Part shown: piece by piece, positions 175 to 2,606 of the stretch
Numbering within the stretch: position 1 is the stretch's first letter
How the letters are laid out: each line of letters begins with the position of its first letter
Source of the DNA: a virus
DNA length: 64,000 nucleotides
Virus record (IMG/VR): IMGVR_UViG_3300040856_003015
Coordinates: 10,893 to 74,892 of that record
Direction: 5' to 3' (one strand)
The notes under the pieces: generated by a model
What the model saw: only the letters and a program-made list of their open reading frames with translations
Told to the model about the DNA's origin: nothing
Database searches by the model: none
Made by a program: the position numbers and the translations under genes

Positions 175-1075
175 AACTAAACTCTACTCTAGCGATTTCA
201 TCAAGTTTTTGCATCACTTCATCAGTGAAATATACTTCAGGATCTTTTAGGATTTGTTTTGCGTAAATCTTTTTACCATTCATTTCATAACGACCTGCTA
301 CATTTTTCCAAAGTCCGCCAATCTCACCGAGTTCAAGAAGACCATAATATCTATCAAGACCACGCTCATCATAATAAAGACGAATTTCAACTTCTTTATT
401 CTCCTTGCTCAAGCGCGACTTGTGAGTCTTTGCCTTGATAAGATTGCCGACGACTTCTGTTCCATCCTTCTCTTTCTTTTTGCTGAGATAGATGATTGTA
501 CTTGCTGCATACTTGAGACCAGAATTGTGAGACACGACACCATTACCAAGAATATAATGATGTTCTCCTTCAACTGTGATGTCATAAACATCCTCAGTCT
601 TTATTTTCTTGATAGACTTTACAATTCGTTCCATGCCACCTCTTATACATATAGATTTGATAGTATCTGAAGGTAATAACTCAGTAACGGATTTCCATTC
701 ATAACCATCTCCAGTATCTACTAAAAACTTATGTTCGCCAGAACATCTAATAGTTTCTCCATCTTCCAATTCCAATTCATAAACATCTTTATCGGTGAAA
801 TGGAAAGTGTCAGTAACTGATGAATAACCAAACATAGTTCTCACTTTGTCACCAACTTGAATAGATTCAATAGGAATAGAACCATTTTCTGTTTGTATCT
901 TAGTTCCCGCAACTAAACAACCCCCACCCATTTCCTTTGTAGGGACATAAGAGTTATGAGAAAGTGTCCCATCTTCAAAAATATAGTGATGAGCATCTTC
1001 TATTTCGATATCATAAACATTAGTATTCTTTTTTTTAATTTTTTCAATTTTTTTAATTTTGATGCCAATAGTCAT
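164..1075 (-). CDS. uvsX: UvsX recombinase C-terminal fragment: IntC (41 aa) + 11-aa extein + 132-aa cis mini-intein + 119-aa C-extein
   Basis: Starts with an IntC ending VYDIEIEDAHHY...SHN, then extein SYVPTKEMGGG, an intein C...SHN, then SGLKYAASTIIYLSKKKEKDG...KSRLSKE typical of UvsX. GGAG lies upstream of the ATG. Confidence 0.93.
   Translation of the reverse strand: MTIGIKIKKIEKIKKKNTNVYDIEIEDAHHYIFEDGTLSHNSYVPTKEMGGGCLVAGTKIQTENGSIPIESIQVGDKVRTMFGYSSVTDTFHFTDKDVYELELEDGETIRCSGEHKFLVDTGDGYEWKSVTELLPSDTIKSICIRGGMERIVKSIKKIKTEDVYDITVEGEHHYILGNGVVSHNSGLKYAASTIIYLSKKKEKDGTEVVGNLIKAKTHKSRLSKENKEVEIRLYYDERGLDRYYGLLELGEIGGLWKNVAGRYEMNGKKIYAKQILKDPEVYFTDEVMQKLDEIARVEFSYGS
524..919 (-). other. 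Cis mini-intein with no endonuclease domain (132 aa) in UvsX
   Basis: Block A CLVAGTKIQT, block B CSGEHKF, block F VYDITVEGEHHY, block G SHN followed by Ser+1. Confidence 0.93.
953..1075 (-). other. Split intein C-fragment (IntC, 41 aa)
   Basis: Basic N-terminus (KIKKIEKIKKK), VYDIEI, terminal SHN followed by Ser+1. Confidence 0.92.
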
Positions 1076-1091
1076 TTGAAATTTACTCCGT

Positions 1092-1099
1092 TATAAATA
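1092..1099 (+). promoter_or_regulatory. T4-type late promoter TATAAATA for the antisense HNH gene
   Basis: Exact TATAAATA 28 nt upstream of ATG 1128. Confidence 0.7.
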
Positions 1100-1127
1100 G
1101 TTATAATCATACCTATTATGTAATAGA

Positions 1128-1763
1128 ATGAAGCACATACATCATATTATACCACGACATATAGGTGGGTCTGATGACCCAAGCAATTTAATAGAATTAA
1201 CAATAGAAGAACACGCAAAAGCACATTTTGATCTCTGGAAGAAGTTTGGTCGCATAGAAGATAAAATTGCTTGGGAGTGTTTATCTGGAAGAAATCTTTC
1301 AGAAGAAGAAAGAATTATACTATCAAAATCTGGATTTGAAAAGTTTTTACTAGATGAAAGTAAAGTCACAAAATGGAAAAATAAAATATCAAATACATTA
1401 ACTGGAAAAATTCAATCTGAAGAAACTAAAATAAAAAGATCAAACTCACTAAAATTAGCATATAAAGAAGGTAGAAAAAAAGTTATTGTTAATTCAGATG
1501 ATGCTAGAAGAAGATATTATGAAAATAATATATCTCAATTAATGGCAGAAGGTAGAAAAAAATCTCAAGAGTGGAAGAACTCTGTAACTTCAGAAGAATA
1601 TAAAATTAAAAAAACTTTATCAGACCCAAGATCTAAAAAAGTATCTGTAGATGGAATAGTTTATAATTCAATTAGAGAAGCATCTAAAAAAACAAATATA
1701 AATTATTCCAAACTAAGAAATGTACTAATTTCCAATATTAATAATAATATCTTCTTCTGTTAA
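1128..1763 (+). CDS. Free-standing HNH homing endonuclease with NUMOD3-like and C-terminal HTH-like DNA-binding motifs, antisense between the uvsX halves
   Basis: HHIIPRHIGGSDDPSNLIELTIEEHAKAH (HNH), GKIQSEETKIKRS (NUMOD3-like), KVSVDGIVYNSIREASKKTNI (NUMOD1/IENR1-like). The only convincing plus-strand gene in the window. Confidence 0.88.
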   Translation: MKHIHHIIPRHIGGSDDPSNLIELTIEEHAKAHFDLWKKFGRIEDKIAWECLSGRNLSEEERIILSKSGFEKFLLDESKVTKWKNKISNTLTGKIQSEETKIKRSNSLKLAYKEGRKKVIVNSDDARRRYYENNISQLMAEGRKKSQEWKNSVTSEEYKIKKTLSDPRSKKVSVDGIVYNSIREASKKTNINYSKLRNVLISNINNNIFFC

Positions 1764-2606
1764 TTCAGAAACTTTTTTCCACTCACCCTCTTGAGTCATT
1801 AATTTATGCTCTCCTGTTAATTTATAAATCGACCCATTTTCAAGTTCAACTTCATAATATTCATCAAACGAATATCTATAAGTATTGATGACTTTTTTGG
1901 GTCCGACCATAGTATTCACATAATCTCCAACTTCAATTTCTGAAATATCAATATTTCCATTTGGAGTTTTAATCTTGGTTCCTTTAAGAGCACATCCGAT
2001 AACATCGTAAGTGTGGTTTGTTACTAAAAGTGGAATGTTTGCTTGTCCCAGTTTCAGAGTAAGCATACGGAATGCTCCTTTGACAAGTTGAGATTTGGTC
2101 ATGTCCCTGACTTGCTTATCATCTAAAGCATCACGAATCTCTTTCTCTGTGGAAAGCATACCTAAAGAGTCTAGCACAAACATACAGGGTTTGCGATCCT
2201 CTACAGGTTTTTTTAAGTATATGTCTACTGCCTGTAATGCTTTCTGTCTAAACTGTTCAATCGTAACAACATTGACAACAACCAATCGCTCTAAGTCAAT
2301 GCCACGACTTGCAAGAAGAGATTTGTTAACTGCTGCCTCAGTGTCAAAGTACAAACAGTAACCGTCAGGATTACTATCCAAAAAATTCTTAACCACAGCG
2401 AGACTAAAGAAAGTCTTCCCAGTAGAAGACTCACCAGCAATGGCAGTAATCTTATTCCCAGAAACACCACCAAATATGCTACCTGAGACCAGTGAATTAA
2501 AGATGTAAGAACCCGTGTCCACAAAGGTTTCGGTGTCGTCGATGTCTGATGCGAGTTGGGTGTAGTCATCTCCAATCTCTTTTACAATTTCTTTTAAAAA
2601 ATCCAT
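1725..2606 (-). CDS. uvsX: UvsX recombinase N-terminal fragment (204-aa extein) fused to an 89-aa IntN
   Basis: Walker A AGESSTGKT, FVLDSLG Walker B, VTNHTYDVIG then CALKGTKIKT. Start set to ATG 2606 (MDFLKEIVKE). Confidence 0.93.
   Translation of the reverse strand: MDFLKEIVKEIGDDYTQLASDIDDTETFVDTGSYIFNSLVSGSIFGGVSGNKITAIAGESSTGKTFFSLAVVKNFLDSNPDGYCLYFDTEAAVNKSLLASRGIDLERLVVVNVVTIEQFRQKALQAVDIYLKKPVEDRKPCMFVLDSLGMLSTEKEIRDALDDKQVRDMTKSQLVKGAFRMLTLKLGQANIPLLVTNHTYDVIGCALKGTKIKTPNGNIDISEIEVGDYVNTMVGPKKVINTYRYSFDEYYEVELENGSIYKLTGEHKLMTQEGEWKKVSELTEEDIIINIGN
1728..1994 (-). other. Split intein N-fragment (IntN, 89 aa)
   Basis: Cys1 block A, LTGEHKL block B (TxxH), WKKVSEL, then a stop codon with no blocks F/G. 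Confidence 0.92.

Follow-up and report, generated by a model that had tools for sequence, protein, structure and literature searches.

Fractured genes, in which a split intein is accompanied by a free-standing endonuclease gene, were described by Dassa et al. 2009 (PMC2677866) for gp41-1 to -9, NrdA, NrdJ, IMPDH and DnaE, and the invasion of an intein by an endonuclease was proposed there as their origin, the matching contiguous allele being absent. A split intein with a homing-endonuclease gene inside a phage gene is, as a basic element, already known. Protein engineers have built tandem trans-splicing from pairs of split inteins that are orthogonal to each other (Khoo et al. 2020, PMC7210297; citing Shi and Muir 2005), and among natural proteins mycobacterial DnaB carries two inteins (PMC6195587). 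Here we describe the uvsX gene in a stretch of viral DNA of 64,000 nucleotides (nt) from the IMG/VR record IMGVR_UViG_3300040856_003015 (74,892 bp, of which positions 10,893 to 74,892), called the window below. We believe, with a probability of about 0.8 for the explanation as a whole, that this is a fractured gene holding two independent mobile inteins of the same family, 11 codons apart in the L2 loop of UvsX, and that they came together by homing or recombination between phages and not by duplication in this genome.

The phage is of the T4-like cyanomyovirus type, its DNA at 1-6000 matching at about 73% the uvsX/gp43 regions of Synechococcus and Prochlorococcus myoviruses, and its uvsX consists of two genes on the minus strand (Table 1). 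The N-half encodes a RecA-fold ATPase with a Walker A motif followed by IntN1, the N-fragment of a split intein at site 1 (Int1). It starts at 2606 (MDFL), as homologous N-halves do; the open reading frame (ORF) from 2663 would add 19 residues that have no counterpart in the homologues. The C-half gene (1075-164) contains, in this order, the C-fragment IntC1, a micro-extein of 11 residues, a second and contiguous intein at site 2 (Int2) and 119 residues of UvsX. A free-standing HNH gene lies antisense between the halves; it and the N-half gene share 39 nt where their 3' ends meet. Both exteins are homologous to UvsX: the N-extein scores above the PF00154 cut-off of 27 bits, and P0076, a homologue of the C-extein, matches the solved phage UvsX 9gbg with E 1.2e-43. 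Through P0076 the micro-extein aligns to residues 208-218 of 9gbg, and its 11 residues directly precede the GG/S that aligns with 9gbg and RecA (a slash within letters marks a junction). An earlier, sequence-only reading of this DNA had proposed the order IntC, 11-residue micro-extein, complete mini-intein and extein, which proved exact to the base. The look-alike motif pairs that it quoted are all found, both junctions are G/S, and the layout supports its conclusion that UvsX would require two splicing events, one in trans and one in cis.

By their sequences, the two elements are homologous members of one intein family in the L2-loop region of UvsX. Both IntN1 (CALKGT) and Int2 (CLVAGT) begin with Cys1, the nucleophile of class 1 inteins; the block B motif T-x-x-H reads TGEH in Int1 and SGEH in Int2 with the His kept, and both inteins end in HN with Ser at +1 (SHN/SYVP and SHN/SGLK). 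The profile PF14890 (Intein_splicing, cut-off 35.8 bits) gives 68.1 bits on the C-half and 30.4 bits, under the cut-off, on the N-half alone, as expected of half a domain. A pairwise alignment of joined Int1 with Int2 (137 columns, 107 bits, E 7e-36) shows 45% identity, far beyond chance. The nearest solved structure in a sequence search is the gp41-1 intein (6qaz, E 6e-13), and the place where that intein is naturally split falls, in the alignment, at the beginning of IntC1 and at the Met inside the linker of Int2. The gp41-1 intein is likewise a small HINT domain of the same size class; however, the identity is about 30%, the host gene is different, and the IntC of gp41-1 is negatively charged (preprint 10.1101/546465), whereas IntC1 and IntC2 start positive. 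Int1 has the character of a naturally split intein, as its fragments stand on separate ORFs with a stop (after NIGN) and a start (MTIGIK) of their own, and ends of these types are also found in the site-1 loci L027-L036 of IMG/VR. It is split at the endonuclease-insertion loop, and its fragments are oppositely charged, with a net charge of -6 in IntN1 and +6 in the first 20 residues of IntC1; the corresponding values are -9 for Int2N and +3 for the start of Int2C.

Like the genes of Dassa et al., uvsX is a conserved replication/recombination gene of cyanophage-like DNA broken within an intein, at the canonical split site and with an endonuclease gene between the halves, and in both cases there is an endonuclease-less variant too (gp41-7 theirs; L030 and L049 here). 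It differs from them in the host gene, uvsX being mentioned in PMC2677866 merely as a neighbour, and in the endonuclease, which is HNH here and GIY-YIG or Vsr-like there. Their genes lie on one strand, whereas in the window the HNH gene is on the plus and uvsX on the minus strand, although the one-strand arrangement is found in site-2 alleles of the L001 type. Two more differences are the second intein 11 residues downstream and a contiguous allele that is 100% identical to the fractured one. The endonuclease-less split inteins lie at L030:1542-1999 (site 1, with a spacer of 59 nt) and L049:4350-5894 (site 2, spacer of 12 nt). The split dnaE gene of Trichodesmium erythraeum reportedly carries a split intein alongside contiguous ones. 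Like this gene and mycobacterial dnaB, uvsX would need more than one splicing event per host protein, but in those proteins the inteins are far apart and not close kin, whereas here they are 11 residues apart and of one family.

Int1 and Int2 are independent mobile elements, gained and lost among related phages. The site-2 intein occurs alone in 22 IMG/VR loci (L001-L022), always split and with a small same-strand HNH gene between its parts, and the site-1 split intein occurs alone in 10 others (L027-L036). Among metagenome proteins, C-halves that lack Int2 (IntC1-SYVPTKEMGGG-SGLKY; P0070-P0122) are common, and many N-halves end in IntN2 (P0005-P0069). Moreover, N-halves with a 100% identical IntN1 and C-halves lacking Int2 are found on contigs of equal size (219,635; 95,433; 84,115; 10,087 and 4,278 bp). 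The sequence-only reading had derived the pair from a local duplication, a claim that we abandon: each intein stands alone in many relatives, phages with an identical IntN1 do without Int2, and Int2 was acquired horizontally (see below). At the DNA level, the best local match between the two families is 69-72% over 61-75 nt, with nothing beyond, so that neither the identity nor the constant co-occurrence of an in-situ tandem duplication is observed. Considering that each intein is alone in many phages and that Int2 is horizontal, the pair was not made in this genome.

The antisense HNH gene probably encodes the homing endonuclease through which the site-1 element spreads. Its product corresponds to the homing endonuclease family phrog_655 (E 3.5e-18) and matches the Pfam HNH profile with 23.8 bits, with weak matches to NUMOD1 and to the I-TevI DNA-binding domain. 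An antisense HNH gene occupies the same position in nine of the ten site-1 loci, being 69-94% identical to that of the window in eight and 50% identical in L035; L030 is the locus without an endonuclease gene. N-halves 40-100% identical to that of the window are found in metagenomes.

Table 1. Features of the two-gene uvsX locus (positions in the window; a slash marks a splice junction or breakpoint)
Feature	Position	Strand	Description
uvsX N-extein	1995..2606	-	204 amino acids (aa), MDFLKEIV...NHTYDVIG; Walker A GESSTGKT; Pfam RecA PF00154, 45.2 bits
IntN1, N-fragment of the site-1 split intein (DVIG/C), with stop	1725..1994 (coding 1994-1728)	-	89 aa, CALKGT...NIGN
HNH homing-endonuclease gene (putative), free-standing	1128..1763	+ (antisense to uvsX)	211 aa; Pfam HNH PF01844
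Late-promoter-like motif TATAAATA, T4-type	1092..1099	+	28 nt 5' of the HNH ATG; motif match alone
IntC1, site-1 C-fragment	953..1075	-	41 aa, MTIGIKIKK...GTLSHN
Micro-extein SYVPTKEMGGG	920..952	-	11 residues; UvsX/RecA L2 DNA-binding loop region
Int2, contiguous mini-intein, site 2 (GGG/C...HN/S)	524..919	-	132 aa, CLVAG...VVSHN; Cys1, SGEH, SHN
Int2 internal linker S-I-C-I-R-G-G-M	632..652	-	breakpoint 651/650; AAGAGG...ATG, ATG at 634-632
uvsX C-extein, with stop	164..523	-	119 aa, SGLKYAAS...FSYGS

Int2 is identical to the split alleles of L001 and L003 at 395 of 395 nt (Int2N 269/269, Int2C 126/126), whereas the exteins of these loci are 77-87% identical to those of the window, the divergence beginning immediately outside the intein. 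An identical Int2 in divergent uvsX genes indicates that it arrived recently and horizontally, and the comparison points to a donor lineage whose copy of the intein is interrupted by its own HNH cassette. L001 is in fact Int2 plus a 662-nt HNH cassette at TCTAT/ATGTAT, which is the canonical split site and corresponds to the junction between 651 and 650 of the window; the cassette provides a stop (after ...KSM), the HNH gene and the region upstream of IntC2. One and the same intein in natural contiguous and split forms that differ by nothing except the cassette goes beyond what we found in the literature searched. Such a matched natural pair bears on how split inteins arise or heal, and on what suits an intein to both cis- and trans-splicing; engineered splits of cis-splicing inteins have not yielded highly robust split inteins (preprint 10.1101/546465). 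The site-2 HNH gene itself (L001:5316-5987) has no stop of its own inside the cassette, and its frame ends 56 nt into Int2C, its last 18 codons being Int2C sequence in another frame.

In three further split alleles, the identities of Int2N, HNH gene and Int2C to L001 were 98/93/92, 90/86/91 and 80/74/81%, respectively, and this co-divergence of cassette and intein suggests that the split state is old. L011-L013 (e.g. L011:878-1937) are mosaics with respect to L001 (N-part 78, HNH cassette 94 and C-part 98%) and look like conversion tracts around the endonuclease gene. The sequence ATGTATAAGAGGTGGCATG is retained in all split alleles, and many IntC2 gene calls begin at its ATG (MERIVKS..., P0329-P0338). 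In the window, this ribosome-binding site and the ATG of IntC2 persist and are read in frame, forming the linker of Int2. We consider it most likely, though well short of certain, that the Int2 of the window is a re-fused split intein that has lost its cassette, since it falls within a set of old split alleles, has kept the ribosome-binding site and ATG, and has a close three-piece counterpart (see below). The remaining probability, a sizeable minority, goes to a never-invaded contiguous allele of the kind that served as target of the cassette. Three points weigh against re-fusion: a never-invaded allele would look identical to Int2, a second contiguous allele (P0004) has a different and shorter linker, and no microhomology was found at the cassette breakpoints, though a simple deletion often leaves it. 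A simple microhomology deletion between ATGT repeats was considered and discarded, its product being 2 nt too short and out of frame with respect to the junction in the window. In IMG/VR, from which the record of the window itself was perhaps excluded, the cassette-free Int2 junction had no exact match.

Related arrangements recur in other phages. L084 (3226-5936), whose UvsX is much more distant from that of the window, is an independent double with an N-half carrying an IntN, an antisense HNH gene and a C-half of the form IntC-SLYPQDIMGGG-contiguous intein-C-extein. In L085 (3689-5152), the site-2 intein and the C-extein are identical to those of L084, site 1 is empty, and the N-half and micro-extein are different. 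The identical 3' part next to different N-exteins indicates a recombination boundary at the inteins. Further doubles are P0053, P0131, P0134, P0161 and P0185; P0184 is a mirror image, with site 1 contiguous and site 2 split, and P0178 has a contiguous site-1 intein only.

The protein P0322 (142 aa) consists of IntC1-SYVPTKEMGGG-IntN2 and is 88% identical to the window. As it ends in ...LPSDTIKSM, the terminus that the cassette creates, this is a genuine protein end and not the cut of a contig. The same layout, IntC1-11 aa-IntN2, is found in P0325-P0327 (on contigs of up to 26.9 kb) and in the group P0046/P0049/P0050/P0052, which have conserved C-terminal tails in common. These protein records imply that in some phages UvsX would be assembled from three polypeptides. 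A three-piece locus was not returned as DNA from IMG/VR, JGI metagenomes or GTDB genomes, and the degenerate pattern HN-SYVP...GGG-C had no match. P0140, taken at one point for a three-piece middle protein, was dropped, being labelled 'partial' at NCBI and matching the contiguous gene of L084. The middle piece of engineered tandem trans-splicing, IntC(A)-short peptide-IntN(B), which becomes ligated to an N-fragment on one side and a C-fragment on the other, has the layout of P0322 and P0325-P0327, and the C-half of the window would match it if Int2 were split, but here Int2 is contiguous. The engineered pairs are, moreover, unrelated inteins picked for orthogonality, whereas the natural pair is 45% identical. 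Two related inteins 11 residues apart, both split in relatives so as to allow a natural three-piece ligation of UvsX, had no precedent in the literature searched; the three-piece layout had been built before by protein engineers with orthogonal inteins. The relevance of the locus lies, we believe, in intein evolution and protein engineering, and not, as the sequence-only reading had it, in alternative splicing.

Related inteins lie close to the two sites. HTY/C inteins are present in P0141, P0150, P0139, P0264, P0167 and P0228, and KEM/C inteins in P0154, P0249 and P0238. With these positions, which lie within a few residues of the two sites, the L2 loop has at least four neighbouring insertion points. 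The L2 loop of UvsX as an intein hot spot with several adjacent positions, marking the boundaries of exchange between phages, is likewise beyond the literature searched. A third site in UvsX, within the P-loop (GK/T), is occupied in P0019, P0079, P0136, P0144, P0293 and P0297 and in the locus L036:2916-5000; there it is combined with a split site-1 or site-2 intein into a different sort of three-piece layout, in which the middle fragment is large.

Among the explanations that differ from ours, the one that survives best concerns the kinship of the two inteins. In the phylogeny, a sister clade is compatible with the data (p 0.162 when the two cyanophage families were joined in an approximately unbiased (AU) test) and is absent from the careful tree of 44 full-length inteins. 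We give somewhat less than even odds to an ancient ectopic transposition, in which one lineage hopped between adjacent positions of the L2 loop, so that the two inteins would be true sisters that later homed separately. In a quick tree of 173 rows, the inteins of the UvsX L2 region form one group (Shimodaira-Hasegawa-like approximate likelihood-ratio test, SH-aLRT, 92) that parts into a mostly site-1 (81) and a mostly site-2 (83) subgroup, and the rows of this group first labelled 'other' turned out to be mostly UvsX inteins at HTY/C and KEM/C, that is, at further nearby positions. In agreement with a hop, both homing endonucleases belong to the same PHROG family, and in BLAST the best match of Int1 outside its own family is Int2, a ranking that goes along with the AU result. 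However, the support is modest and the 44-row tree collapses at that depth to a polytomy in which a few non-UvsX inteins are included; some 130 columns are too few for such a depth, and the comparison set is biased, having been drawn from matches to Int2 alone.

Returning to the fractured gene with two mobile inteins, UvsX would be made from two precursors, UvsX(1-204)-IntN1 and IntC1-SYVPTKEMGGG-Int2-UvsX(C, 119 aa). Int2 would excise itself in cis, before or after the Int1 step, the acidic IntN1 and the basic IntC1 would associate and splice in trans, and the end product would be an ordinary UvsX of 334 aa. Splicing of IntN1 with the C-part of Int2, or cyclisation of the 11-mer by IntC1 and the N-part of Int2, would in this explanation be off-pathway side reactions without function. 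Several observations weigh against the account. Splicing, its order and its efficiency are deduced from motifs and homology only; Int2 has a Ser in the usual Thr position of block B; the charge polarity is equal in both inteins, so that electrostatics would be no bar to their cross-association; the polytomy of the careful tree takes in inteins of other hosts; and contigs from an RNA library (X16) cover parts of the stretch only and were not counted as expression.

The sequence-only reading had proposed that, the inteins being duplicates, IntN1 captures the C-part of Int2, the loop is skipped and a loop-deleted UvsX with the junction DVIG-SGLK arises as an alternative product. We find this very improbable. 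It agrees with the 45% identity, with the rank of Int2 as top match of Int1 beyond its own family, with the compatible two-family clade and with the acidic N-parts and basic C-starts of both inteins; the ribosome-binding site and ATG inside Int2, if used, could even release a free IntC2-UvsX-C. Nevertheless, each intein is found solo in many phages, Int2 is horizontal and the careful tree does not recover a sister relation. The C-part of Int2 is covalently tethered to its own N-part, which should disfavour an intermolecular competitor, and the proteins in which IntC1 and IntN2 are parts of a single chain (P0322, P0325-P0327) would give UvsX only if the inteins are largely orthogonal. L2 has an established role in RecA-family proteins, and a UvsX without this segment should therefore be inactive. 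Alternative splicing is probably selected against. Domain swapping between engineered inteins is said to result in alternative protein splicing. Together with a domain-swapped mini-intein structure (PMC8175363), this shows that an N-part can pair with the C-part of another intein molecule and so gives the idea its physical basis, but these are engineered or crystallised constructs of one intein, and such pairing is not known between two different natural inteins of one host protein. As for specificity, naturally split DnaE inteins cross-react (preprint 10.1101/546465), whereas phylogenetically distant split inteins are mostly orthogonal (15/16; PMC7090010). Even less probable, in our view, is a biologically meaningful product of non-orthogonal inteins, be it the loop-deleted UvsX or a functional cyclic SYVPTKEMGGG peptide, made alongside normal UvsX; if true, this would be natural alternative protein splicing.

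The arrangement is found in data sets of different studies and years. Nineteen contigs carry the C-half protein in exactly this form, and in 14 DNA runs from 13 studies (2018-2025; estuary and sea water) 99-100% of the words sampled from 450-2050 are present. In X1, X2 and X13, this stretch is spanned by single contigs with zero differences; any one of the three, and not all, may be the source of the window. In the same samples, short contigs of X13 join 521 to 927 (...EMGGG-SGLKY), Int2 being absent, contigs of X2 join 951/952 to 1996/2002 (DVIG-SYVP), without Int1 and the HNH gene, and an X2 contig (record 22; window 927-952 plus 2002-2031) is without both inteins at a similar word depth. 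Such intein-skipping joints show that alleles with and without each intein coexist. The X2 allele empty at both sites reads GGG-CGLKYAA, with Cys and not Ser at +1 of site 2. That the locus is a chimeric contig of two phage populations, or that a dead Int2 makes uvsX a pseudogene, is the least credible of the explanations: intein-free and single-intein alleles sharing a sample can mislead assemblers, but a chimera of known alleles would contain the site-2 HNH cassette while a cassette-free Int2 occurs in no IMG/VR locus fetched, the recurrence in contigs, runs and studies just described speaks against it, and the catalytic residues are all intact in a sequence of which other phages have identical alleles that are under selection.

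Two neighbouring genes deserve a comment. In L085, the adjoining gp41-like helicase gene (L085:6233-7573) ends in a gp41-1-like IntN (CLDLESKI...EEHLFPTKDG), so that this phage carries several fractured genes. The gp43 DNA polymerase gene of the window (2732-5964, minus strand) is likewise divided into two ORFs (5964-4693 and 4120-2732). An intein was not found there by the intein profile, and an HNH gene (4646-4080) lies between the two gp43 ORFs.

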